Assembly: GCA_965248925.1 (NCBI GenBank)
Contig: CBDFLE010000006.1
Location: 1,440,001-1,504,000 of the forward strand
Direction: 5' to 3'
Length of the DNA: 64,000 bases
From: Candidatus Multivoradales bacterium
GTDB taxonomy: Bacteria; Acidobacteriota; Thermoanaerobaculia; Multivoradales; J023
The position numbers and the translations under genes were made by a program. Positions 1 to 62,665 of the stretch are shown here, piece by piece. Position 1 is the first letter of the stretch, and each line of letters begins with the position of its first letter. The notes beneath the pieces were generated by a model. It was not told the origin of the DNA. It made no database searches and was given only the letters and a program-made list of their open reading frames with translations.

Positions 1-1549
1 AGTCGCCCACCTCACCGCCAGATTCGGCATAGAACACGCTGCGGTCGAGCACTGCCACGCCACGCTCGCCACCGCCCAGACTAGTCGCCACCCGCGCCGA
101 ACCATCGGCATCCAGGCGCGCCAAGCGCACCACCATGGCACCGTCGAGCTCGGTGGCGGTGTAGCCGACGAATTCCGTCGCCCCTGGTTCACCGACCCCA
201 TAGACCGCCTCGCGCAGACTGGCCATGCGGCGCTGTAGCTCGCCGGTGGTATGGCGGGAACTCTCGCGGCGCGCGGCCAGATGGCGCTCGAAACCTTCGA
301 TATCGACCTCGAGCTGCTCTTCGGCGGCAATCTCACACACCGTGTCGAGTTCTTGGCCGTAGGTGTCGTAAAGCTGAAAAATTGCCTCGCCGGACAACAC
401 TCCTCGCCCTTGCTGGCGCGCGCCTTCGATGGCTTCCTGTACTCGTCGAGCGCCGCTGGCCAGGGTGTTGAGATACTTCTGCTCTTCCTCGCGCACGGTG
501 GCCGTGGTGGCGGTTTCAGTCTCACCGAGTTCGCGGTAGTGGTGGCCGAGCATCTCTCCCACCAACGGCACCAGGCGGTGCAGAAAAGGCTCTTCAAAGC
601 CTAGTCCCATACCGTGGCGCACCGCGCGGCGCAGTAGCCGACGGAGCACGTAGCCACGTCCATCGGGACCGGGAATGACCCCATCGGCAAGCATGAAGCT
701 CGCCGCCCGCAGATGGTCGCCAACCACCCTCAAGGAGACATCGGCCCGATCGTCGCGGCCATACTCGGTCCCGGCCAGGGCGGCGGCGGCACGCAGCAGC
801 GGCTGGAAGAGGTCGGTATCGTAATTCGAAGCCACCCCCTGCAGCACCGCCGCCACCCGCTCGAGTCCGGCGCCGGTATCGATCGACGGATTGGGCAACG
901 GCTGTTGCTGGCCGTCGGCAGTGCGCTCGAATTGCATGAAGACCAGATTCCAGATCTCGACATAGCGCCCGTTGTCGTTGCCTAGATGGAAGTCGATCTG
1001 GGGCAGCTCGGGCTGAAGGTCAACAAAAATCTCACTGCAAGGGCCACAGGGACCGGTCTCACCCATCGACCAGAAGTTGTCCTTGGCGCCACAGCGCACG
1101 ATGCGTTCGGCCGGCAGACTGGACAGCTGGCGCCACAGCTTGGCGGCTTCGTCGTCGTCCTCGAAGACGGTGGCGAAGAGCCGCGCAGCCGGCAACTCCC
1201 AGACCTCGGTGATCAGCTGCCAAGCAAAGCGAATGGCGTCTTCCTTGAAGTAGTCGCCAAAGGAGAAGTTGCCCAGCATCTCGAAAAAGGTGTGGTGACG
1301 AGGGCTGGGGCCGACATTTTCCAGGTCATTGTGCTTGCCCGACACCCGTAGACACTTCTGTGCCGTCACCGCGCGAGAATGCGGCGCTTCCTCGTTGCCG
1401 AGGAAGATGTCTTTGAACTGCACCATCCCGGCGTTGACGAACATCAGTGTCGGATCGCCCTGCGGCACCAACGGCGCGCTGGCCAGCGGCTGGTGGTCGT
1501 GCTGGCTGAAGTAGTCGATGAAACTCTGACGGATATCCTGACTCTTCAT
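1..1549 (-). CDS. alaS: Alanine--tRNA ligase, 5' part (runs off the window start)
   Basis: Manual translation from ATG at 1549 gives MKSQDIRQSFIDYFSQHDHQPLASAPLVPQGDPTLMFVNAGMVQFKDIF, the AlaRS N-terminal signature. It is absent from the ORF track because it is truncated. Confidence 0.96.
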   Translation of the reverse strand, partial: MKSQDIRQSFIDYFSQHDHQPLASAPLVPQGDPTLMFVNAGMVQFKDIFLGNEEAPHSRAVTAQKCLRVSGKHNDLENVGPSPRHHTFFEMLGNFSFGDYFKEDAIRFAWQLITEVWELPAARLFATVFEDDDEAAKLWRQLSSLPAERIVRCGAKDNFWSMGETGPCGPCSEIFVDLQPELPQIDFHLGNDNGRYVEIWNLVFMQFERTADGQQQPLPNPSIDTGAGLERVAAVLQGVASNYDTDLFQPLLRAAAALAGTEYGRDDRADVSLRVVGDHLRAASFMLADGVIPGPDGRGYVLRRLLRRAVRHGMGLGFEEPFLHRLVPLVGEMLGHHYRELGETETATTATVREEEQKYLNTLASGARRVQEAIEGARQQGRGVLSGEAIFQLYDTYGQELDTVCEIAAEEQLEVDIEGFERHLAARRESSRHTTGELQRRMASLREAVYGVGEPGATEFVGYTATELDGAMVVRLARLDADGSARVATSLGGGERGVAVLDRSVFYAESGGEVGD

Positions 1550-29239: not shown

Positions 29240-29665
29240 ATGAGCATCGTCCAGCATCCTCCCCACCGCTGGGCCCATCTGCTGCTGCAAATTGGGCTGG
29301 TGGTCGGCGCACTGTACGACAGTCTCTTCGCGCTGCTCATCGTCGCCCTGCCCGAGCTTCCTGCCCGGCTGCTCGACCTGCCGATTCCTGATGAAACCTA
29401 CTTGCTCTGGTTGCAAGCGGTATTCCTGCTGATGCTCAGCGCGATCTACCTCCTGGCCGCCTACGACCCGGTAGCCTATGGCGGCAACGTGGCGGTGGCC
29501 ATCGGCGGCCGTGGTGCCGGTTTTTTGGTGATGGCGGCAGCGGCATCGAGCAACCCCGCCTGGGCTGGTCTGTGGCCGTTGGCCCTGGCCGATCTGCTCT
29601 TCGCCGCCTGGCATGCGCTGGCCTGGGCGCCGATCCGCCGACCCGGACGATTCGGACTCCGCTGA
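29240..29665 (+). CDS. Small four-helix membrane protein of unknown function
   Basis: 141 aa with four hydrophobic segments; stop overlaps the start of the next gene. Confidence 0.7.
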   Translation: MSIVQHPPHRWAHLLLQIGLVVGALYDSLFALLIVALPELPARLLDLPIPDETYLLWLQAVFLLMLSAIYLLAAYDPVAYGGNVAVAIGGRGAGFLVMAAAASSNPAWAGLWPLALADLLFAAWHALAWAPIRRPGRFGLR

Positions 29666-47281: not shown

Positions 47282-47521
47282 CACCGCTCAAACCAACGCC
47301 GCCTCAACCTCCGCTCGATCGACCAGCACCGAGCGGCCCGTGGCCTTGACTTCGGGCTCGAACTCGTAGTCGCGAATCACCCGCCTGAAGACCTCGCGCA
47401 AAGCCCTGGCACCCAAACGCGGCTGGCTGGCGGCCGCCTTGGCGATCGCTTGGATGACGGCGGGTGAGAGGGCCAGGTCGTAGCCGCGGCTCTCTAAGTA
47501 ACGCCGCACCTAGTGGTAGCC
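47282..47521 (-). pseudogene. Displaced duplicate of the 3' ~240 bp of the ClpX-like gene
   Basis: Direct repeat of 48281-48520 with about a dozen substitutions, including CAG->TAG. Confidence 0.9.
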
Positions 47522-47640
47522 AAACTAGGTGCCACCCGCCTCGCGAATACACGGAGCAGGCGCCTCTAGAGCCGCTGTGCCCAAACTAGGTGCCACCCCC
47601 TCGCGAATACACGGAGCAGGCGCCTCTAGAGCCGCTGTGC
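47520..47640. repeat. Tandem 61/60-bp repeat (junction motif plus vapC 3' end); third copy at 44800-44860
   Basis: CCAAACTAGGTGCCACCC..TCGCGAATACACGGAGCAGGCGCCTCTAGAGCCGCTGTGC at 47520, 47581 and 44800. Confidence 0.92.
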
Positions 47641-48006
47641 CCCGTCAAGTCGGCTGAGTTTGCGGTCGAAAGTGCCGAGGGGGAGATGCCCTGCCTGACG
47701 AGCAATTTCCAGCACCAGGCAGTCCGAAAAGCCAAGGCCTGGCAAGCTCCTGAAGTGGGCGAGCGCGGCCACCACGGTGCTCCGTTCTTGAACCGCGATT
47801 TGACGATGATCGAGCAACATCTCGATGGCGGTGGCGATGGCCAGCGGCTTCAACTCGTAAACCGCCGACAGCACCCACGTGGTTTCGGCGAGAACCAGAT
47901 GGGAGATCCACGCACCGCGGCCGATGAAATCTTCAGCAGTATCAGCCTGCCCAGCGTCATCCCTGGTGATGAGCCGCACCAGGACGTTCGTATCAACCGC
48001 GTTCAT
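47626..48006 (-). CDS. vapC: VapC/PIN-domain toxin, copy A (identical to copy B)
   Basis: Same 126-aa sequence as 44846-45226. Confidence 0.92.
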   Translation of the reverse strand: MNAVDTNVLVRLITRDDAGQADTAEDFIGRGAWISHLVLAETTWVLSAVYELKPLAIATAIEMLLDHRQIAVQERSTVVAALAHFRSLPGLGFSDCLVLEIARQAGHLPLGTFDRKLSRLDGAQRL

Positions 48007-48256
48007 GCTTCAGCTGGGCGTACTCACGAACACCGTCTTTCAACTCCTCCAAGCTCCTACGTCGGGGTGTTCCTCGAGGGAAAAGAGCTGCGCTGATGTC
48101 CTTGGAGGAATAAGCACCACCGAGACTGACCACGATCCGCCCCTGTTCCTCGTTCCAGAGCAAAACCGAGCCGGGGCCAGCCCCCAGTCTCTGACGCACT
48201 TTGGCCGGCACCGAAATCTGCCCCTGGGCGGTAATCTTTGATCGAGCGAGACTCAT
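47993..48256 (-). CDS. AbrB/MazE/SpoVT-family antitoxin, copy A
   Basis: KITAQGQISVPAKVRQRLGAGPG. Confidence 0.9.
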   Translation of the reverse strand: MSLARSKITAQGQISVPAKVRQRLGAGPGSVLLWNEEQGRIVVSLGGAYSSKDISAALFPRGTPRRRSLEELKDGVREYAQLKHERG

Positions 48257-48286: not shown

Positions 48287-49378
48287 TCAAACCAACGCCG
48301 CCTCGACCTCCGCTCGATCGACCAGCACCGAGCGACCCGTGGCCTTGATTTCGGGCTCGAACTCGTAGTCGCGGATCACCCGCCTGAAAACCTCGCGCAA
48401 AGCCCTGGCACCCAAACGCGGCTGGCTGGCGGCCGCGTTGGCGATTGCTTGGATGGCGGCGGGTGAGAGGGCCAGGTCGTAGCCGCGGCTCTCAAAGTAG
48501 CGCCGCGCCTGGTGGTAGCCCGAGTCGGGGACTTCGAGGAAGATGCGCTCGAGTTCGTCGACCGTCAAGTCGTCGAGCAGCACCACCGCGTCGAAGCGGG
48601 ACAAGAACTGTGGGCTCATGCCGTAGTCGAAAAGGTCTTCGTTCTTGAGCCAATCGCGCAGGGCGAACTCGAGCCGCTGTTCGACGTTGCCGTCTTCAAC
48701 CACCGTTACCGGCTGTAGCGCGCCTTTGTCCTTGCCGACCGTGACCCGGTCGTACACCGCGTCCCACAAACCCTCGAAGGCACCCGCACTGACGAACAGC
48801 AGGCCGCTTGAGTCCACTGTCAAAGTCTTACCTCCAGCCCAATCCGGCAGAGTGAAGGGCACCGATTCGTTCTCAATCAGGGTAAGCAGGGCTTCTTGCG
48901 CCCGGATACCGGCAGTGTTGGGCAGGCCACCCACGTGAGCGCGGATCTTGTCGACCTCGTCGATGAACACCAAGCCACCACGCGCTTGCTTGAGCAAGGT
49001 GGCGACCGGGGTCGCGGCCCCGAGCTGCTCGCGAGCGCGTTCTAGCAGGCGCCGCAGCACCGCCTCACCGGGTCGCCCTCGGGCCGCTTCTTCACCCAGC
49101 ACGTTGGCGTGGATGCGAATCACCGTCGAACGCAAGGCCAACTCCGGGCGCTGGCTGAGGTACTGCTCCACCGCCCGCATCAGGGTGGTCTTGCCGGTAC
49201 CCGAGGAACCGATCATCAGCAAGTTGCCGAGGGGCAAACCGGCGAGCTTCTTCGACAGGGCGATCGACATCTCGCGAATCGCTTCGCGCTGACCGATCAC
49301 CCTCTTCTCGAGCTCAGCGGCAATCTCCTTCGGGCTGGGAACCTTGGCCGACACTTCGCTACTGGACATGCCCACCAT
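48287..49378 (-). CDS. Atypical ClpX-like AAA+ ATPase
   Basis: PSPKEI..VIGQREA, GSSGTGKT, VFIDEVDKI, GAFEGL, DLFDYGMSPQFLSRF, LGARALR; no zinc-binding domain. Confidence 0.85.
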   Translation of the reverse strand: MVGMSSSEVSAKVPSPKEIAAELEKRVIGQREAIREMSIALSKKLAGLPLGNLLMIGSSGTGKTTLMRAVEQYLSQRPELALRSTVIRIHANVLGEEAARGRPGEAVLRRLLERAREQLGAATPVATLLKQARGGLVFIDEVDKIRAHVGGLPNTAGIRAQEALLTLIENESVPFTLPDWAGGKTLTVDSSGLLFVSAGAFEGLWDAVYDRVTVGKDKGALQPVTVVEDGNVEQRLEFALRDWLKNEDLFDYGMSPQFLSRFDAVVLLDDLTVDELERIFLEVPDSGYHQARRYFESRGYDLALSPAAIQAIANAAASQPRLGARALREVFRRVIRDYEFEPEIKATGRSVLVDRAEVEAALV

Positions 49379-50487: not shown

Positions 50488-51480
50488 TCAGCCGGCAGCG
50501 CCCACCACCATCGAACAATCCGCCGCTAACCATGGTTCGGGGTCCGAGAACTCGACTTCACCCGACCGCGCCGTCGAGAGTCGACTCGCCCTGCTCTCGA
50601 CAACCGACTCACCGCTCGTGGCCGCGACCTCGGCGCGGGTAAAGATGTCCAGAGCCAGGGCAACAACCTGGCGCCCGGCACGGCGAATCGAACCCAAATG
50701 CTCCGCGCCATCGATGATCGTGGAACTGCCACCGGCTAACTTCGCCAGCTGGCGAGTGTCCTCGGGGCGAACTCCGCGGTCTTCGCCACCGCTGACATAG
50801 GCCACTGCTTCGAGACCCAGGAATGGAGCGTGCGAGCGAGCATCGAGGTAGCGATAGGCACTGCCGAAAGCATGCTCAAAGAGCTTGTAGAACGGCCAAC
50901 CTCGAGGAGCCATGCGGTGTGACCATTCGAGCAGATGAGGAGGAACATCCTCGAACATCGCCCCCACGGCGAGGGGGGAACGTGACAAAGCGGCATGCGC
51001 CCAATAGCCACCAGCACTAACCCCCCACAGGTGCAGCGGCAAGTCACCGGCGTAGTCGCGCAGCCAAAGCAACCCATCGGCAATATCGCGGTCGAAAAAG
51101 CCGCGGACCGGAGAGCTGCTGCCAAAACCGCTCAAGTCAAAGCTCAGCACATGGTACCCGGCCTGGCGGAGGGCCTGAATCCGACCGCGGGTGTGAAAAT
51201 AGGCTTTGCCCCAGGGTCGCCATGGATGTACCAACAGCACCGCACCCCGAGGTGCCGACGCCGGGAACAGCCGCGCCGCCAGACCACCACCCCGGCCCCG
51301 GCGGGCGATCTGAAAATCACAGTAGGGCCCCAGATGTGGCGGCGCTGGAGACTGCTCCTGACAGCCTAGACGCGGCGAAAGGGCCAAGAAAAGCCGGTTG
51401 GCGACAGTCTCTATGCGCCGCGAAGGACGGCTGGGAGGCAATAGCTCGGAGTTTCCCAGAGGTTGGGCTCGATCACTCAT
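50488..51480 (-). CDS. Alpha/beta hydrolase
   Basis: FDLSGFGSS, WGVSAGG nucleophile elbow, GGED, GAEHL; GGAGG before ATG 51480. Confidence 0.82.
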   Translation of the reverse strand: MSDRAQPLGNSELLPPSRPSRRIETVANRLFLALSPRLGCQEQSPAPPHLGPYCDFQIARRGRGGGLAARLFPASAPRGAVLLVHPWRPWGKAYFHTRGRIQALRQAGYHVLSFDLSGFGSSSPVRGFFDRDIADGLLWLRDYAGDLPLHLWGVSAGGYWAHAALSRSPLAVGAMFEDVPPHLLEWSHRMAPRGWPFYKLFEHAFGSAYRYLDARSHAPFLGLEAVAYVSGGEDRGVRPEDTRQLAKLAGGSSTIIDGAEHLGSIRRAGRQVVALALDIFTRAEVAATSGESVVESRASRLSTARSGEVEFSDPEPWLAADCSMVVGAAG

Positions 51481-51643
51481 CTTGTGGCCTCCAAGGCCAG
51501 AGATCCTAGGGACCCGCCGGCAAACAGGCAGGATGCTTGGGACCCTCCACGGAGCACATGGTAGATAGCAGTCGACCAGCGACCGACAGAGACCCAAGAC
51601 ACAGCAAGAGGCGGGTCATGGCGGGTTCTGGGAAAGTGAACAT

Positions 51644-51660
51644 CGCAACACGCATGCCAA
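51644..51660 (-). promoter_or_regulatory. Putative sigma-54 promoter of the hydrolase gene
   Basis: Minus strand TTGGCATGCGTGTTGCG, near-consensus TGGCACG-N4-TTGC. Confidence 0.65.
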
Positions 51661-51904
51661 GTTTAGGTCTCACTCAGCTTCTTAGGGCGGTTAGACTAGA
51701 GTGAGGTAAACCCTTTGTACACAGCAAGTTAGCAATCAGTTATCAAAGCCAGACAAAAGGCCTCGCGAACCACCGCCTACCAAGAGGGCTTTTCGCCTTG
51801 AGCACAAGAATCGGTTGGCCCCGACCGCCAACGTAGTGGGCACAGCGGCCAACATTTCCTCTACCAAGCAGTAGATCTCGAATACGCAAATGCGCATACC
51901 ATCC

Positions 51905-51933
51905 TTGACAAGCCTCGCTGCCGGAACTACGCT
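51905..51933 (+). promoter_or_regulatory. Sigma-70 promoter of the proBA leader
   Basis: TTGACA-17 nt-TACGCT; predicted +1 falls at about 51940-51941. Confidence 0.7.
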
Positions 51934-51940
51934 GGAGACC

Positions 51941-52051
51941 ATGAACGGCCTCCTCCTCACCACCTCGCACCTTCGCCTGCCGCTGGATCGCGGTCGTCGC
52001 CGCCCCTGCCTCTGCCGCAGTCCACGATGCCCGAGGCCGGGAGGACCGTAG
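51941..52051 (+). CDS. Putative 36-aa attenuator leader peptide MNGLLLTTSHLRLPLDRGRRRPCLCRSPRCPRPGGP
   Basis: ATG at the predicted TSS; stop 28 nt before a terminator; below the ORF-track size cutoff. Confidence 0.6.
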   Translation: MNGLLLTTSHLRLPLDRGRRRPCLCRSPRCPRPGGP

Positions 52052-52079
52052 ACGCGCCACATCTGCTAGCGTCGACCAG

Positions 52080-52115
52080 AACCCCCGGCCAGCTCCAAGC
52101 TGACGGGGGTTTTTT
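52080..52115 (+). terminator. Intrinsic terminator (attenuator) upstream of proB
   Basis: AACCCCCG-GC-CAGC-TCCAA-GCTG-A-CGGGGG followed by T6, 35 nt before the proB ATG. Confidence 0.85.
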
Positions 52116-52150
52116 GCTTCTGCAATGTCCGAACACAGAAAGACCTCACC

Positions 52151-53356
52151 ATGCGCAACTCCCACACCAAGACCGCTATCGCCGCCGCCGGCACCGCTCC
52201 CCAACCGGCCCGGCCGGCAGTAGCGGCGGCGCAGAGGATCGTCATCAAGCTCGGCAGTCGGGTGTTGACCAACGACGACGGCAGCCTGGCGCAGCAACGT
52301 ATGCGCGCCGTGGTGGCAACCGCCGCCGCGCTGCGCCACAGCGGTCGCCAGGTGTTGTTGGTGAGCTCGGGAGCCGTGTCCCTGGGCCGCGCTGAGTTGG
52401 GACTCGATCGCCTGCCTCCCAATCGCGGTCTGCGGCAAGCCTGTGCTGCGGTCGGACAGACCCGCTTGACCACCTTCTACCAACGGGTCAGTAGCCCTTT
52501 CGGCCTCAGCTGCGGCCAGCTCCTGGTCAGCCACCGCGATCTCAACGACCGCCAGCGAGCGCTGAATCTGCGTCGCATCCTCGATGCCCTGCTGGACCAG
52601 GGAGTGCTGCCGGTGCTGAACGAGAACGATGCCTTGGGCGACGACAGCGAGCCCGAAGCCACCCCCGCCTTCACCGACAACGATCGCCTGGCGGCCTTGG
52701 TAGCCAGCGAGGTTGCGGCCGACCTGCTGCTGCTGTTGACCGATGTCGAGGGTCTCTACGATCGCAACCCCAAGACCGACTCCACGGCGCGACTGCTGAG
52801 CCGCATCGATGATCTCGACGCTCTGCCACAGGTCGATCCTGAGCCTGGATCGGCCCTCGGTCGGGGCGGCATGCAGAGCAAGGTCGAAGCAGCGCGACTC
52901 GCTTGCCTGGGCGGCTGCCAGACGGTAATCGCCAACGGCCTGCGGGCCGGTGGTCTGTCGCAAGCGGTGGCCGGTGATGAGATCGGCACCTGGTTAGCAG
53001 CCAGTGGCTGGCTGGGGGCGCGCAAGCGTTGGATCGGTCTGACCGCGCCGTCTCGCGGCGCCCTCTACCTGGACGCTGGCGCGGTCGAGGCGCTGTGCGC
53101 ACACAACGCTTCCTTGCTGAGCGCTGGGGTCGAGCGCATCACCGGCCGCTTTCGCAGTGGCGATGTGGTCGAGCTGCGCTCTGCCGATGATCAGCTGATC
53201 GGCCGCGCCTTGGTGCGGCTGAACTCGACCGCCGCTCGCCGCCGCTGTGCCACAAGCAATCGTGCCGTCAGCAGCGCTGCCGTCAGTAGCCGTGCCGCCA
53301 GCGGCGGTGATCCAACCCTAATTTCGCGCACCGATATCGTGCTTCCCCCCAGCTGA
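52151..53356 (+). CDS. proB: Glutamate 5-kinase with PUA domain
   Basis: IVIKLGSRVL, VSSGAV, AAVGQ, LNENDA, DNDRLAA, GRGGMQSKV. Confidence 0.96.
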   Translation: MRNSHTKTAIAAAGTAPQPARPAVAAAQRIVIKLGSRVLTNDDGSLAQQRMRAVVATAAALRHSGRQVLLVSSGAVSLGRAELGLDRLPPNRGLRQACAAVGQTRLTTFYQRVSSPFGLSCGQLLVSHRDLNDRQRALNLRRILDALLDQGVLPVLNENDALGDDSEPEATPAFTDNDRLAALVASEVAADLLLLLTDVEGLYDRNPKTDSTARLLSRIDDLDALPQVDPEPGSALGRGGMQSKVEAARLACLGGCQTVIANGLRAGGLSQAVAGDEIGTWLAASGWLGARKRWIGLTAPSRGALYLDAGAVEALCAHNASLLSAGVERITGRFRSGDVVELRSADDQLIGRALVRLNSTAARRRCATSNRAVSSAAVSSRAASGGDPTLISRTDIVLPPS

Positions 53357-53370
53357 AGGAGTGCCCTGCA

Positions 53371-54660
53371 ATGAAACTGGATCTAGCGCCCCTTGCTCAC
53401 CAAGTCCGTCAAGCTCAGCGCCAGCTCGCCAGCGCTCCGGGCAGCCAACGTTCGCAACTCTTGTGGAATCTCGCCACCCTGCTCGAGGAGCGCCGAGAAG
53501 AACTGCTGGCGGCCAACCGTCTGGACCTTGAAGCCGCCCGCCGAGACGGCCTGGCCCCCCCCCTACTACGCCGACTGGAGCTAACCCCGGCAAAAATCGC
53601 GACTCTCTGCCAAGGCGCCCGCCAACTCGCCGAACAAGGCGATCCTCTGGGCCAGGTGCTGCGCCGCACCGAACTCGATGACGGCCTTGAACTCACCCAA
53701 GTGCGCAGTCCCATCGGCGTGCTCTTGATCATCTTCGAGAGCCGCCCGGACGTGGTCATTCAGATCGGTTCCCTGGCCCTGCGCAGCGGCAATGGCGTCT
53801 TGCTCAAAGGAGGTTCGGAAGCCACTCAATCGAACCGCCTACTGGCTCAATGCCTGGCCGATGTGCTGGCCAGTGAAGATCTGCCAGGGGCGGCCGTCAG
53901 CCTGGTCGAAGGACGCCAGGCGGTGCACCAGCTACTCGAACTTGACTCGCTGATCGATCTGGTGATTCCGCGCGGCTCTGGAGAGCTGGTGCGATCGATC
54001 CAAAACGCTACTCGCATCCCGGTTTTGGGTCACGCTGAAGGCATCTGCCACCTCTATGTCGACGTCGACGCCGATCCACGGATGGCGACACACTTGGCGG
54101 TGGACGGCAAATGTGGCTATCCGGCGGCCTGCAACGCCACCGAGACCCTGCTGGTGCACGAGGACTTCCTCCCCCGGCTGCCCGCGGTGGGCCGAGCCTT
54201 GCTCGAAGCCGGGGTCGTGCTGCGTGCCGACGCCCGTGCCCGTGCCCACCTGAGCGCCGTCGAGCCCGCCAGCAGCAACGACTGGCAGACCGAGTGGGGT
54301 GGGCTTACCCTGGGGATCAAGACCGTCGCCAACTTGGCCGCGGCGGTCGACCACATCCACCGCTACGGCAGCGCCCACACCGAATCGATCGTTACAGACA
54401 ACGCCGCCACGGCAGAGAGCTTTCTACGCCAAGTCGACGCCGCCTCAGTGTTTCACAACGCCAGCACCCGCTTTGCCGACGGCTATCGCTACGGCCTCGG
54501 CGCCGAGGTGGGTATCTCTACCGGTCGCATTCACGCTCGCGGACCGGTTGGCGCCGAGGGCCTGCTGACCACTCGCTGGCTGCTGCGCGGCAGCGGCCAA
54601 GCGGCGGCGGACTATGGCGCCGGCAAACGGGCCTTCAAGCACCGCGTCCTCCCCAACTGA
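53371..54660 (+). CDS. proA: Gamma-glutamyl phosphate reductase
   Basis: FESRP, LKGGSEA, IPRG, ACNATETLLVH, NASTRFADG, GAEVGISTGRIHARGPVG. Confidence 0.97.
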   Translation: MKLDLAPLAHQVRQAQRQLASAPGSQRSQLLWNLATLLEERREELLAANRLDLEAARRDGLAPPLLRRLELTPAKIATLCQGARQLAEQGDPLGQVLRRTELDDGLELTQVRSPIGVLLIIFESRPDVVIQIGSLALRSGNGVLLKGGSEATQSNRLLAQCLADVLASEDLPGAAVSLVEGRQAVHQLLELDSLIDLVIPRGSGELVRSIQNATRIPVLGHAEGICHLYVDVDADPRMATHLAVDGKCGYPAACNATETLLVHEDFLPRLPAVGRALLEAGVVLRADARARAHLSAVEPASSNDWQTEWGGLTLGIKTVANLAAAVDHIHRYGSAHTESIVTDNAATAESFLRQVDAASVFHNASTRFADGYRYGLGAEVGISTGRIHARGPVGAEGLLTTRWLLRGSGQAAADYGAGKRAFKHRVLPN

Positions 54661-56520: not shown

Positions 56521-59448
56521 ATGACTAGTTTCCCGAAAAAGATACTCGCTATTCTCGTTCTAAGTCAGCTAATAGTGCTTTGCGCATTCGCCCAAGGCAA
56601 TCCTAGCGGCAAGGTCAGTGGCCGCATAACATCCGCTGGCGAGGCCATTCCAGGAGTCCGCATCTCGATCGAGTCCGACAGTCTGCTGCAACCGCGACAG
56701 GTCTTCAGCCAGGCCGGCGGTGATTACCTTGTCAACGCCCTACCGCCCGGCACCTACCGCCTGACCTTCCATCTCGAGGGGTTCGACCCGGCAACACGCC
56801 AAACAGCGGTATCGATTGCCCAGACTACCTATCTGGATGTCGATCTCGACGCTCCTGAGTTCGCCGACATTGTCGACGTGGTCGCAGACTCAACCAAGAT
56901 TTCAGAATCGGCCACTGCCTCCACCACCCTCACCCAAGACTTCATCGACAAGCTGCCGACCGGCCGCAGCATCAACTCCATCGTCACTCTGGCGCCGGGC
57001 ACGGCCAACACCGGACCGAGCAACAATCTGTCGATCTCGGGTGCACAGTCATTCGACAACCTTTACTTGATCAACGGCGTACCAGTGATGGAGAATCTGC
57101 GCGGCCAGGCTTCGACCCTGTTTATCGAAGACGCCATCGCGGAAACCACCGTGTCGTCCGCCGGCGTCTCCGCCGAGTACAGTCGCTTTACCGGCGGGGT
57201 CATCAACACGGTGACCAAGTCAGGTGGCAATCAGCTTTCGGGATCGCTGCGCAGCAGCATCACGAATGACGATTGGACCTCGGTGTCACCGTTCGGAGAG
57301 ACCCGACTCGACGACATCAATCAGCGCTACGAAGCCACCCTCGGCGGCCGCTTGATCAAAGATCGGATATGGTTCTTCGCTGCCGCTCGCAGTGTCGACA
57401 ACTCCGTCGGCGGCTCAACCTCTTTCAGTAACATACCGTTTGACACTTCGCAGGAGGAAAGCCGAATAGAAGGCAAACTGACGGCCTCGATCACCGCCAG
57501 CCATGAAGTGCAGCTGAGCGTATTGGAGATCGAGGACGACCGCACAGGAAACGTGCAGGGGGCGGCCCTCGATCTCGGCGCGGTCAACGACAACGTCAGC
57601 TTTCCGGAGGAGTCCTTCGCCGCTCACTACACCGGCATCCTGACCGACAAGTTGTTGATCGAGGCGCAGTATTCCGAACGCTCGTTACAGTTCAATGGCA
57701 TCGGCGGCCTCGACAGCAACTTGCTCACCGGCACTCCCTTCCGCGACGCATCACGGGGGGCGGCGGTCTACCACCAACCGCTCTTCTGTGGCAACTGCCC
57801 CAATCCGACCACTCGCGAGACGGAGCACGCTATCGTCAAGGGCTCACTCTTCCTACCGACAGAAAAGACCGGATCCCATGACCTGATCTTCGGCATAGAC
57901 ACCTTCAACGACATCATTTCCGGCGACAATGTTCAGTCAGCCACCAACTTCGCGATCTGGTCGAGCAATGTGATCATTCGCGGTAGCGATGTTTTCCCAG
58001 TGCTGATTCCCGGCGCCAACGCCTTCATCCTCTCCCGCCCGATTCTCGAATCGAGCCTCGGCACCGATTTTGTCTCCAACGGTCTCTATGTCAACGATAC
58101 CTGGCGCTACGACGATCGCTGGAGCTTCAATCTCGGTCTGCGCTTCGACCAGAACGATGGGGTTGATTCGGCAGGGAATGCGATTGCTGACGACAGCTAC
58201 ATCAGCCCCCGCCTCGGTGCGTCCTATGACTGGAAAGGCGACGGCTCGCTGCTGCTGCGGGCCACCACCGGCCGCTATGTCACGCGCCTGGCCAATGGCG
58301 TCGCCAATGGTGGCTCAGCGGCGGGCCGGCCGGCCTTCTTTGGTTGGAGCTACTTCGGGCCGGGGATCAATCTGGATCCCAACACTGCCGACCCGGTCAC
58401 CGCCGAGGAAGCCTTGACGATCATTTTCAATTGGTTCGATTCGATCGGCGGGGTGAACGCCTTCGCCGACCTCGGCACCAACATTCCGGGTGCTACCAGC
58501 CGCATCGATGGTTCCCTCGACTCACCCAACGTCGAGGAATTCACCCTCGGATTCACCCAGCGCCTGGGCAGCCGAGGCTTGGTGCGCGCCGACTACATCC
58601 GGCGAGAGTTTGGCAACTTCTACTTCCAGCGCACCGACACCAGCACCGGTACCATCGTCGATCCAAATGGGGTAACTCAGGACCTCACTCTGATCCAGAA
58701 CGACGACTCGGTCCTCGAGCGGGTTTATGACGGATTGCAGACCTCGTTCCGCTATCGCCTCAATTCGCGCTGGGACGTGGGTGGCAACTGGACCTGGTCC
58801 CACGCCCGCGGCAACTTCAACGGCGAAACGGTCCGTACCGGCCCGGTCTCCGGCACCGTCGGTCAGTACCCGGAATTCAAGGCTTTCGCGCAGAACAACC
58901 CGCGCCGCGACTTGAGCATTGATCGCCGTCACACGGCCCGTGCCTGGCTGCTCTTCGACGCTATCCAGACCGAGCACCACAGTCTCGACATCAGCTTGTT
59001 GCAGAGCTTCTTCTCCGGCACCCCTTACGGTGCCGCGGGGGGCGTTGATTCCTCACCTTTCGTCGATGATCCGGGGTACCAGTCGCCACCTGGCTCAAAT
59101 GGCGTGACCTATTGGTTCACCGCCCCGAATGCCTTCAAGACCGACGACATCAGCCGCACCGATCTGACCCTCAACTACAGCTTCGGCTGGACCCTGGGGG
59201 GTAAAGCACTAGAGATCTTCGTGCAGCCCGAGGTCATCAACGTATTCGATGCCGACGGGGTTACTGGGGTCAACACCTTCGTCCAAGACGCCACCTCCGC
59301 CGCCGGTTTCGAGGCCTTCAACCCCTTCACCGACACCCCGATCCAAGGCGTTCATTGGGACTTCGGATCGACCTTTGGCCAACCCACGAACTCCACTAGC
59401 TACCAAACGCCGCGGACCTTCCGGATGTCGGTCGGCCTGCGCTTCTAA
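56521..59448 (+). CDS. TonB-dependent outer-membrane receptor (Oar-like, N-terminal carboxypeptidase-regulatory-like domain)
   Basis: AGGAGG RBS, signal peptide, LPPGTYRL, SAEYSRFTGGVINTVTKSGGN, C-terminal PRTFRMSVGLRF. Confidence 0.93.
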   Translation: MTSFPKKILAILVLSQLIVLCAFAQGNPSGKVSGRITSAGEAIPGVRISIESDSLLQPRQVFSQAGGDYLVNALPPGTYRLTFHLEGFDPATRQTAVSIAQTTYLDVDLDAPEFADIVDVVADSTKISESATASTTLTQDFIDKLPTGRSINSIVTLAPGTANTGPSNNLSISGAQSFDNLYLINGVPVMENLRGQASTLFIEDAIAETTVSSAGVSAEYSRFTGGVINTVTKSGGNQLSGSLRSSITNDDWTSVSPFGETRLDDINQRYEATLGGRLIKDRIWFFAAARSVDNSVGGSTSFSNIPFDTSQEESRIEGKLTASITASHEVQLSVLEIEDDRTGNVQGAALDLGAVNDNVSFPEESFAAHYTGILTDKLLIEAQYSERSLQFNGIGGLDSNLLTGTPFRDASRGAAVYHQPLFCGNCPNPTTRETEHAIVKGSLFLPTEKTGSHDLIFGIDTFNDIISGDNVQSATNFAIWSSNVIIRGSDVFPVLIPGANAFILSRPILESSLGTDFVSNGLYVNDTWRYDDRWSFNLGLRFDQNDGVDSAGNAIADDSYISPRLGASYDWKGDGSLLLRATTGRYVTRLANGVANGGSAAGRPAFFGWSYFGPGINLDPNTADPVTAEEALTIIFNWFDSIGGVNAFADLGTNIPGATSRIDGSLDSPNVEEFTLGFTQRLGSRGLVRADYIRREFGNFYFQRTDTSTGTIVDPNGVTQDLTLIQNDDSVLERVYDGLQTSFRYRLNSRWDVGGNWTWSHARGNFNGETVRTGPVSGTVGQYPEFKAFAQNNPRRDLSIDRRHTARAWLLFDAIQTEHHSLDISLLQSFFSGTPYGAAGGVDSSPFVDDPGYQSPPGSNGVTYWFTAPNAFKTDDISRTDLTLNYSFGWTLGGKALEIFVQPEVINVFDADGVTGVNTFVQDATSAAGFEAFNPFTDTPIQGVHWDFGSTFGQPTNSTSYQTPRTFRMSVGLRF

Positions 59449-59643
59449 CTCACCCCCAGCGGCCCCGGACCTCGACTCTCCCGGGCCGCTCCTTCCCCCC
59501 GGCTTTGCCGGATTTCGCCCTTCTTCTTCTCTTCCATCAAGGCGGCCAACGGGCCGCCATTTTTCTTTTGCTCGAGAGCCTGGCTGCACATGAGGTCAGA
59601 AACCCGCTAAGATAGACATCTAGATAGCCACCTGGAGAGCCTT

Positions 59644-60373: not shown

Positions 60374-62665
60374 ATGAGCAACTTACCGTTCTCCAGTCTG
60401 GCGAAACGCCTGGAGCAGCTCGAATTCCGGCTGCTCGGTGAAGAAGGCTCGACTGCCTTCGCCGAGCTGGGGCCACCCGCGAGCCTCGAACGGCTCTTCG
60501 GCCTCGAGCTGCGCCTGTTACTGCGACGCGGGCCGGGGGCGCGGCCCACCCCGGCAGACTTGGTGGCCACCGCTGCCAGCGCCGCCGCTGAAGGCGCTCT
60601 GCCTTTGGCCGCCACGGGCAGGCTGCGCCAGTTTCTCGATCTCCAGGGAGTTCTGCTGAAGCGGGCCGATGCCTGGCAGGGCCCACTGTGGTGGCAGCCG
60701 CTGCCGGCTCCGACAGCGCTCGAAGAACTCAGTCGGGAGCTTCAAGAAGCGTTACAAATTCCAACCGGCGAGCCGCTCGCCGAGACCCTCTCGGCCAGCG
60801 GGGAGGGCTGGTGGACGACCAACACCCTACTCAGGCCGACCTATGTCAGCCAGCTGGCGACCGAACTTGAAGGCGCTTTCCAAGGTGGCCAGCTGCCCCT
60901 GGAACGGGCTGGGGTCGGCAGCGACGGCCTGACCTCGACGGCTCGCTCTGACCAAGTCGCCTACCTCGATGGCACTGAACCCGAGTTGCTGGCGGTGGCG
61001 CCCCGTGCCGCGGCGCTGATCCAAAGTGTTCTGGTGGAGTTCGCCGAGGTACTGGATATTGGCGGCAGAGGGCAAGTCGCGCTAGCGCCGGAGCGTGCCA
61101 TGCTGGCCCGTTATCCCGCTCCTTCAGGAGGTTTCAGACCCCACCTGGACAATCCCGGAGGGGAACACGACAACGGCCGTAGCAGAACCCTGGTGCTCTA
61201 CCTCAATCCCGCCAACGCCCTCTGCCAGGGCGGCGAGCTGGCCTTGTGGTCGGCCGGCACCGCGACCACCGCAGAACCGGTGGCGGTGCTCAAACCACGG
61301 CCGGGCTGGGCGGCGCTATTTGATTCACGGAAGATCCCCCACCAAGTCCGAGCCCTACGCCCCGGCCCTCCCAGATGGGCCTTGACCCTGTGGTTCAATG
61401 ATCACCTGTCCGGCACAGCGTCCACCCCAGCGCTACCCAAACTCGACCTCACCGATCTGCTGCTGCTGATCAGCTCACCACCACTGCCGGCCGATAGGGT
61501 GCTCTTCCACCAACTCGACGACCGCGATCCACGGGGCCAGCTGACCGTGGTGCGGGCACCAGTATCGGCGGCGGCTCGGCGCTCACGATTCGGGGTGGTC
61601 AGTACGGTCTACCGCTGTGGCGCGGCACTGGCCGACTGGTGCGATCATCACCTGGCCCTCGGCGCGGCCCATCTGCTGCTGATTTTCGATCACCTGGAAC
61701 AACCGGCCGAGGCTGCCTTGGCCACTGCACTGCAAGGCCGTTGGCCGCGCGAACAGCTGCAAGTGTGGTCTGGCGGCGACCTGCTGGCCAGCGGCTGGCC
61801 GGCCCTCGATCCCACCCCGGAGCACCAGCAGCTACGCCGCCTGGCGACCGGTGGCCCCAGCTCCTACGCGGTGGCCGCACGGCAGACCCTCAACGCCTCG
61901 ACGGCATTGGAGGCGGCGCGAGGTGAACAACTCGGCGGCACGCCCCTCGACTGGCTGCTGCACCTTGACGGCGACGAGCTGTTGTATTTGCAAGGCAGAG
62001 GTCGCGGCGGCGCAGACCTGACGCAGCACTTGGCAGCCGCTGAGCAAGCTGGCTGGTCACTCTTGCGCTATCTCAACCATGAGTTGCTGAGCAGCCCCCA
62101 GGGGCCTTCGCCACGATTCAAGATCCACCCCCGAGTGGCAGCGACTATACTCGGCAGCGGCGGCTGGAAACACCTGGAACGACATCTGAAGATGTCCGCC
62201 GACGATCACCGGCCCTATTTCAACAGCTACCGCAATGGCAAAGCGGCGGTACGAGTGACCGCCGCCCGGGCTGCCGCGGGCGTACACAGCTGGTCGCCGC
62301 AGCAGCCGACCCGCAGCGCCAGCCACTGGTTGGCCGGGCCATCGGTGCTGCACTGCTATTGCCCCACAGCAGCCGAGTTCGCCGCCAAATACCGTTCCAA
62401 GGCCAACGCGCCGCCGCTCGCCGAACGCCCTTTCGAGCCTTCGGCAGCTGAAGTCGCGGCATTAGAGACTCTGCACCAGCTCGAAACCAGCGCCGCCAGC
62501 GAATCGCAGGTCGAGGCTGCGCTCACGGCTCTCCACCACCGACTGAGCGAATTCAACGCTAGCGAGCTCGAGCTGCTGGACGAAGCCGGCTTGCTCTTCA
62601 CTTGCGACTCGCCAACCGCCGAACGATTCGCTAGCCGCCTGCTCGATGCCAACGTGGCCGAATAA
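60374..62665 (+). CDS. Fusion of a PHD/EGLN-like 2OG-Fe(II) oxygenase and a GT-A (KOBITO1/GT92-like) glycosyltransferase domain
   Basis: RSDQVAYLDG, FRPHLDNP..GRSRTLVLYLN, GGEL, PHQV, RWALTLWF; then DWCDHHLALG, RQTLNA, DWLLHLDGDELL, YRNGKAAVRV. Confidence 0.78.
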   Translation: MSNLPFSSLAKRLEQLEFRLLGEEGSTAFAELGPPASLERLFGLELRLLLRRGPGARPTPADLVATAASAAAEGALPLAATGRLRQFLDLQGVLLKRADAWQGPLWWQPLPAPTALEELSRELQEALQIPTGEPLAETLSASGEGWWTTNTLLRPTYVSQLATELEGAFQGGQLPLERAGVGSDGLTSTARSDQVAYLDGTEPELLAVAPRAAALIQSVLVEFAEVLDIGGRGQVALAPERAMLARYPAPSGGFRPHLDNPGGEHDNGRSRTLVLYLNPANALCQGGELALWSAGTATTAEPVAVLKPRPGWAALFDSRKIPHQVRALRPGPPRWALTLWFNDHLSGTASTPALPKLDLTDLLLLISSPPLPADRVLFHQLDDRDPRGQLTVVRAPVSAAARRSRFGVVSTVYRCGAALADWCDHHLALGAAHLLLIFDHLEQPAEAALATALQGRWPREQLQVWSGGDLLASGWPALDPTPEHQQLRRLATGGPSSYAVAARQTLNASTALEAARGEQLGGTPLDWLLHLDGDELLYLQGRGRGGADLTQHLAAAEQAGWSLLRYLNHELLSSPQGPSPRFKIHPRVAATILGSGGWKHLERHLKMSADDHRPYFNSYRNGKAAVRVTAARAAAGVHSWSPQQPTRSASHWLAGPSVLHCYCPTAAEFAAKYRSKANAPPLAERPFEPSAAEVAALETLHQLETSAASESQVEAALTALHHRLSEFNASELELLDEAGLLFTCDSPTAERFASRLLDANVAE

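Follow-up and report, generated by a model that had tools for sequence, protein, structure and literature searches.

A plausible attenuator-type switch in the leader of proBA in a Multivoradales bacterium

The proBA locus and its leader

The subject of this analysis is the leader of the proline biosynthesis genes proB and proA in Candidatus Multivoradales bacterium (Acidobacteriota), which lies in a 64,000-nucleotide (nt) stretch of contig CBDFLE010000006.1, referred to here as the window (GC content 62.7%). We consider it plausible that this leader is an attenuator-type switch, most likely driven by the ribosome. An initial annotation, made from the sequence alone, had proposed attenuator architecture before proBA, and the analysis supports it, with a promoter-like site, a terminator and a non-random antiterminator that excludes the terminator, and extends it by a further helix, P1.

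The two genes lie on the forward strand. proB (52151–53356) encodes glutamate 5-kinase, with an AA_kinase and a PUA domain, and proA (53371–54660) encodes glutamate-5-semialdehyde dehydrogenase, with an Aldedh domain. Their identity, previously read from the sequence, is borne out by Pfam and by NCBIfam equivalogs, for which ProB scores 309 bits (cutoff 186) and ProA 507 bits (cutoff 289).

The leader opens with a sigma-70-like promoter pattern on the forward strand (51905–51933), composed of TTGACA at 51905–51910, a 17-nt spacer and TACGCT at 51928–51933. Seven nucleotides separate the TACGCT hexamer from an ATG at 51941; promoter pattern and ATG, both given in the initial annotation, were found again by direct reading. 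This spacing would place the start of transcription at the ATG itself, so that the messenger would be leaderless. With both strands considered, the 64 kb contain a single match to TTGACA-N16-18-TANNNT against an expectation of 0.25, and at least one match arose in 23 of 100 shuffles. A looser search that included the start codon (TTGNNN-16..18-TANNNT-5..8-RTG) returned five matches in the window, compared with 1.9 ± 1.4 in shuffled sequence, where 15 of 200 shuffles reached five. Two of the five matches head real genes, those of a MazE-type antitoxin (48256, reverse strand) and of a 534-residue AAA ATPase (47201, reverse strand), and at both the ATG stands 6 nt past the promoter (TTGAGC-16-TAATGT and TTGGCA-18-TACAAT). 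Because two real genes have the same promoter-to-ATG spacing, leaderless initiation is plausible in this organism, and the pattern suggests that it uses leaderless mRNAs.

From the ATG at 51941 an upstream open reading frame (uORF) of 36 codons runs to a TAG at 52049–52051 (51941–52051, forward strand), exactly as first described, with a putative leaderless start. Its peptide holds 6 Pro, five of them in codons 22–36, along with 8 Arg, 7 Leu and 3 Cys; the earlier counts for Pro, Arg and Cys agree with this reading. The peptide has no Pfam match.

Downstream of the uORF, folding predicts an intrinsic terminator on the forward strand (52082–52115), with a left arm at 52082–52094, a loop of 3 nt, a right arm at 52098–52109 and a run of six U residues (U6) at 52110–52115. 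Its folding energy is −22.9 kcal/mol with flanks and −18.3 kcal/mol for the bare hairpin. The U6 run lies 35 nt before the ATG of proB (52151), on the same strand, so the GC hairpin and T6 run reported earlier are confirmed. A consensus scan did not call this element, since an internal loop breaks the stem rule of the scan. There are five A6 or T6 runs in the window, and the one in the leader is the only intergenic run that follows a compact GC hairpin. A separate proB promoter past the terminator, the feature that the initial annotation had named as telling against its proposal, was sought and rejected: no TANNNT occurs in 52110–52150, and the best −35/−10 candidate that we read there matches in 4/6 and 2/6 positions. 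proB therefore probably depends on read-through.

Competing helices in the leader

Three stretches of the leader RNA compete for each other. Region 1 (51945–51958), a C/U-rich strand that covers codons 2–6 of the uORF, pairs with region 2 (52033–52049) to form P1, a helix of 14 pairs with an energy of −23.1 kcal/mol. Region 2 contains the 5′ strand of the antiterminator (52035–52044) and ends exactly at the stop codon of the uORF; a ribosome terminating there would hide the antiterminator strand and spare the terminator. Region 3, the 3′ strand of the antiterminator, consists of the first 9 nt of the terminator left arm (52082–52090). The complementarity between 52035–52044 and 52082–52090 had been noted before and is present; the duplex has an energy of −20.3 kcal/mol and is mutually exclusive with the terminator. 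P1 is absent from the initial annotation, which had the antiterminator and the terminator. It encloses a long imperfect hairpin (51981–52026, forward strand like all parts of the leader), which may serve as a pause hairpin.

Both helices are stronger than shuffled sequence would lead one to expect. The energy of P1 was reached by 5 of 1000 shuffles and that of the antiterminator by 10 of 1000 when the whole upstream leader was dinucleotide-shuffled, or by 3 of 1000 when the 60 nt upstream were shuffled. As both tests involve the same G-rich block, a stricter control was run in which the partner strand alone was permuted and everything else, including the G-rich region 2, was kept intact; the permuted strands reached the P1 energy in 8 of 2000 cases and the antiterminator energy in 49 of 2000. 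The placement of the reading frame is also uncommon. An ATG or GTG 5–8 nt past the −10 hexamer arose in 1493 of 20,000 shuffles, and such a start together with a stop codon in the interval 52033–52065, from which a ribosome would mask region 2, in 160 of 20,000.

The fold of 51941–52115 has an energy of −71.5 kcal/mol (z = −2.2; 6 of 200 shuffles were as stable), and its minimum free energy (MFE) structure holds P1 and the terminator. When the transcript was grown stepwise, P1 was part of the MFE structure for 3′ ends between 52050 and 52090. With the 3′ end at 52094/52097, the decision point, the state with P1 (−48.1 kcal/mol) and the state with the antiterminator (−48.9 kcal/mol) are nearly equal in energy, and a barrier of 18.3 kcal/mol separates them on the direct path. 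On this model the two states form a balanced, kinetically trapped pair of the kind that a switch needs. The predicted folds thus give the leader the full layout of an attenuator: a 1:2 anti-antiterminator, a 2:3 antiterminator and a 3:4 terminator.

We put the probability that this is a real termination/antitermination switch on proBA at roughly 0.65, a value discounted for the post hoc selection of the region and the lack of conservation data.

Ribosome position and the proposed mechanism

To follow the effect of a translating ribosome, a 29-nt mask was moved along the uORF and the transcript ending at 52097 was folded at equilibrium. With codons 1–10 in the P site, the probability of the antiterminator was 0.57–0.97, and at least 0.87 at nine of the ten positions. 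It was also at least 0.8 for codons 13–14 and 24–27, and 0.00 for codons 29–36. When the full transcript was folded under the same masks, the terminator was always favoured (probability 1.00). The decision must therefore be kinetic. P1 forms before region 3 is made, and blocking it directly requires a ribosome somewhere from codon 1 to about codon 10.

These results are consistent with the following mechanism. Transcription from the promoter at 51905–51933 would yield a leader RNA of about 175 nt, and the polymerase would either stop at 52082–52115 or read into proBA. By default, when the leader is not translated, P1 would form as soon as its 3′ strand is made and would lock the antiterminator strand; the terminator would follow and proBA would be off. 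A slow or queued ribosome over codons 1–10 would cover the 5′ strand of P1, leaving region 2 to pair with the terminator left arm, and the polymerase would read through. An unhindered ribosome that reaches the stop codon at 52049 would cover region 2, and transcription would terminate. A stall further into the frame would be expected to work only through following ribosomes that queue back over the start. The output of such a switch would be a report of the speed at which the uORF is translated.

A switch driven by the ribosome on a leaderless uORF is the version that we prefer, tentatively and at somewhat less than even odds. The leader-peptide part of this reading, in which the putative uORF would be translated, is plausible. 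The first 91 nt of the leader (51941–52031) are 47% C and 23% G. An excess of C over G is associated with Rho loading sites, and if the leader were untranslated its 5′ composition would probably suit Rho loading.

The leader peptide and related loci

A number of observations, which concern the choice of the region, the signals, the peptide and the related loci, weigh against the ribosome-driven switch. All of the statistics are post hoc, the region having been chosen for its attenuator-like look. The consensus scan that passed over the terminator also missed the leader promoter, because the −10 hexamer matches in 3/6 positions only, and reported three other sites, at chance level, instead. In the folding model, region 1 is uncovered once a ribosome stalls beyond about codon 10, and P1 should still form unless ribosomes queue. 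The length of the uORF is at chance, since random frames of 35 codons with the composition of the leader stay open in 10,721 of 20,000 cases. Nor does the frame read like a gene: with 28 genes of the window as the training set of a codon model, the uORF has a coding log-odds of −3.1 nats, compared with 6.7 ± 3.7 for in-frame gene pieces, 99.2% of which score higher, and 15% of intergenic pieces match or beat its score.

The residues of the peptide belong to the same set of observations. Its 6 Pro compare with 5.9 ± 2.2 expected from composition (P = 0.54); the sole deviations are in Leu (7 versus 2.9 expected, P = 0.022) and Arg (8 versus 4.6, P = 0.08). The uORF has no adjacent Pro codons and no tandem run of codons for the product of the pathway. 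Codons 1 to about 10 include Asn-Gly-Leu-Leu-Leu-Thr-Thr-Ser, and those that govern P1 encode Leu and Thr and no Pro, a choice with no evident rationale for proBA. Nothing in the layout suggests proline, and the sensing of proline by the frame, which the initial annotation had in view, is not borne out by a peptide of this composition and non-gene-like codon usage.

A richer supply of proline was seen in the +1 frame, which over 51946–52044 has about 10 Pro in 33 codons and a run of three (PPP) exactly over region 1. This run was considered as a leader and rejected, as no ATG, GTG or TTG occurs in the frame between 51802 and 52026. The simplest account of the proline richness is that it follows from the C/U-rich strand of the helix.

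A search of 5.8 billion clustered proteins gave 57% identity for the nearest ProB, so that database contains no close relative. Genome contigs were then scanned with a ProB pattern taken from an alignment with 29 database homologues, which gave at least 80 proB loci; the best identity among the matches listed is 53%. The source genome is not among the loci listed even though its ProB holds both search peptides, and closer relatives may therefore exist. At the eight nearest loci listed (47–53% identity), no hairpin followed by a T-run was found upstream of proB. The hairpin scan covered 48 of the 80 loci, leaving out those of enterobacteria and Pasteurellaceae, and beyond the eight nearest returned scattered unrelated matches. 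In at least three of these eight (L001, L003 and L005), proB adjoins or overlaps an ORF that runs in the same direction, and has no intergenic space before it. The spacers of the two nearest loci with real intergenic space, L002 and L006, fold differently from the leader (z = −1.25 and +0.14).

Upstream ORFs with at least three Pro in six codons were sought at all 80 loci, with 12 weak matches, no common leader peptide and no convincing Pro run. No comparable leader was found among the 80 loci listed. There is likewise no copy of the leader elsewhere in the window or at these loci, and an origin from a repeat or mobile element was rejected. L002 itself, from an Acidobacteriota metagenome-assembled genome with a ProB 53% identical, carries a perfect GC-rich hairpin of 12 bp (2889–2916 of that locus) about 45 nt before proB, which has no T-run and is unlike the leader described here.

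Alternative explanations

The most probable alternative is a switch that works independently of translation, in which a protein or a small molecule, for example proline, binds the 105-nt domain closed by P1 (51945–52049), stabilises P1 and thereby enforces termination; the uORF would be incidental. The standard OFF riboswitch is built in this way, its P1 3′ strand also serving as the antiterminator strand. With so little energy between the two states, ligand binding worth a few kcal/mol would be enough to shift them, and the chance-level content of the uORF also favours this explanation. However, the 5′ domain as a whole is no more stable than its shuffles (z = −0.98; 81 of 500) and has no demonstrable conserved aptamer, and the placement of start and stop codons (160 of 20,000 shuffles) becomes a coincidence. 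The RNA-family searches also speak against it. Rfam 15 gave no match in the whole window at gathering thresholds, known metabolite riboswitches included, and no usable one at E ≤ 10 over 51500–52300, where the six matches were all chance-level small RNA (sRNA) or cis-regulatory models and no T-box was among them. Twenty related loci gave no Rfam match, and the T-box search also returned none at 12 Firmicutes-type proB loci that had been meant as a positive control. Taken together, we regard a switch independent of translation as unlikely.

A more specific form of the same idea makes the P1 domain either an aptamer of a new kind, for proline or an intermediate of the pathway, or the site to which the PUA domain of ProB binds. 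The ProB of the window carries a PUA domain and is a candidate to bind the leader. Escherichia coli ProB was reported to bind RNA specifically but weakly in SELEX and electrophoretic mobility shift assays (EMSA) (PMC10380284), which counts in favour of the idea; against it, the affinity in that report is well above 10 μM and the RNA concerned is not the enzyme's own mRNA (PMC10380284). A sensor of this specific kind is very improbable. If it were true, glutamate 5-kinase would shut its own operon by stabilising the anti-antiterminator, and the long-unexplained PUA domain of bacterial glutamate 5-kinases would gain a regulatory function in RNA binding.

The promoter and terminator bound a transcript of about 175 nt, which might stand alone as an sRNA or as the gene for a 36-residue peptide with its own terminator; proBA would then rely on constitutive leak-through or on a promoter that went unrecognised, and nothing would be sensed. 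The C/U-rich 5′ end resembles the anti-Shine-Dalgarno seeds of some sRNAs. On the other side, the transcript would end 35 nt before proB on the same strand with no TANNNT between, an antiterminator and an anti-antiterminator have no role in a simple sRNA, and the peptide has neither a Pfam match nor a copy in the window or at the 80 loci. A stand-alone transcript is therefore distinctly unlikely in our judgement.

Chance is another explanation to be weighed: a terminator, functional or vestigial, might by accident have complementary sequence near it in a C-rich, GC-rich spacer, and nothing would be regulated. We are dealing with a single genome and a post hoc choice, GC-rich sequence pairs easily, and region 2 enters both helix tests, which are thus not independent. 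This reading is opposed by the partner-strand permutations, which even with region 2 intact give 8 and 49 of 2000, the start and stop placement at 160 of 20,000 shuffles, and the standing of the leader hairpin as the sole compact intergenic hairpin with a T6 run in the 64 kb. An origin of the whole arrangement by chance seems improbable.

The least probable of the four is the version of the ribosome-driven switch given in the initial annotation, in which a shortage of proline stalls ribosomes at the uORF's Pro codons and so releases the antiterminator. In its favour, proline is the product of the regulated genes, leaders that sense Pro codons exist before Salmonella mgtA and mgtCBR (PMC3641672), and in the masked equilibrium folds the antiterminator probability is 0.83 with Pro14 in the A site and 0.95 with Pro28. 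However, Pro22 gives 0.12 and Pro31, Pro33 and Pro36 give 0.00, in agreement with the earlier remark that stalling at the last Pro codons would partly mask the antiterminator; past codon 10 region 1 can re-form P1, which forms first and has an exit barrier of 18 kcal/mol; Pro codons are neither enriched nor adjacent; and the sole PPP run lies in the +1 frame that lacks a start codon. Sensing of proline through Pro14 and Pro28 is possible in this model, without an enrichment that points to it.

Relation to known systems

If a ribosome-driven switch is accepted as the preferred reading, its closest working analogue is the attenuator of Corynebacterium glutamicum ilvBNC, a working leaderless system of three hairpins with Leu and Val control codons that is described as conserved in 103 species (PMC11857589). 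Both combine a leader ORF on a leaderless transcript (a putative one here), an antiterminator and a terminator before an amino-acid biosynthesis operon, and in both the anti-antiterminator overlaps the translation start region (PMC11857589). The proBA leader differs in that it has no proline codon signal and is seen in a single genome, whereas ilvBNC has cognate codons and is found in many species, and in that P1 bridges 105 nt as a long-range helix where ilvBNC has a local hairpin (PMC11857589).

The classical attenuators of enterobacteria (trp, his, leu, thr, ilv and pheA; PMC1183508) start from a Shine-Dalgarno sequence and have tandem regulatory codons inside region 1. The proBA leader shares with them the predicted 1:2, 2:3 and 3:4 helices, a (putative) short ORF whose stop codon would let the ribosome mask region 2 and a proposed default of termination in the absence of translation. 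It differs in its putative leaderless start, in an ORF that spans region 1 through region 2 and in the Leu and Thr codons of region 1. In mycobacteria, leaderless short ORFs with polycysteine tracts reportedly act as Cys-responsive attenuators, as Canestrari et al. are said to have found in 2020. The proBA leader resembles them as a (putative) leaderless small ORF before a biosynthetic operon; those ORFs have runs of cognate codons.

In Bacillus subtilis, proBA and proI are controlled by T-boxes that respond to tRNA-Pro (PMC9245794). Here too the operon is proBA and the choice between terminator and antiterminator would be made in the 5′ leader; the T-box answers the supply of proline for translation (PMC9245794). 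Unlike a T-box, the present leader, at about 175 nt, has no recognisable Stem I or specifier, and no T-box model matches it at E ≤ 10. Salmonella mgtL and mgtP are leader ORFs with Pro codons whose translation sets the downstream transcription of mgtA and mgtCBR (PMC3641672), and the uORF resembles them as a short leader ORF with Pro codons before regulated genes (PMC3641672). Those leaders precede genes for Mg2+ transport and virulence (PMC3641672), whereas here the genes serve proline synthesis, the leader is unrelated in sequence and Pro is not enriched.

In the literature searched we found no leader-peptide attenuator on proBA or on proline biosynthesis, with the limit that most subscription journals lay outside the search and an earlier report is possible. 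Neither proline nor proA is named in the main text of an attenuator survey (PMC2965389). Within the same literature, the Bacillus T-box is the only documented control of proline biosynthesis at the RNA level (PMC9245794). If the switch is real, attenuation would gain a pathway in which it is not known to operate, in a lineage that branches deeply and has been poorly sampled, and if the switch is driven by the ribosome it would be a leaderless example outside Actinobacteria. Its value is limited by the single genome and by the familiarity of the mechanism class.

Other features of the window

The neighbour upstream of the leader is an alpha/beta-hydrolase gene on the opposite strand (50488–51597), and the divergent spacer between it and proB measures 553 nt. 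The half of this spacer distal to the promoter (51598–51900) is richer in AT, with 52.8% GC. It contains an exact direct repeat of 10 nt (51599–51608 and 51719–51728) and a palindrome (51713–51724), which may be sites for the promoter or a regulator of the divergent hydrolase gene.

Two further hairpins with T-runs were considered as terminators elsewhere and rejected. A T6 run at 29521 that follows a predicted hairpin lies inside an ORF of 141 codons and is not a comparable terminator, and a hairpin with a T-run at 48165 (reverse strand), taken as a possible gene end, lies inside the antitoxin ORF. About 95 nt past the TonB-dependent receptor gene (56521–59448), a compact GC hairpin with a T5 run (59542–59567, forward strand; T-run from 59560) is probably a genuine intrinsic terminator at a gene end, and suggests that the organism uses canonical intrinsic terminators.

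The MazE/AbrB-type antitoxin (47993–48256) forms a vapBC-like pair with a PIN-domain toxin (47626–48006), on the reverse strand. By its appearance the cassette was inserted after an AAA gene (48287–49378), of which some 200 nt of the 3′ end are duplicated downstream (ORF 47288–47509), and a unit of about 60 nt is repeated in tandem at approximately 47530–47655. Further along the window, 60374–62665 (forward strand) encodes a protein of 763 residues with 2OG-Fe(II) oxygenase (PF13640) and family-2 glycosyltransferase domains.

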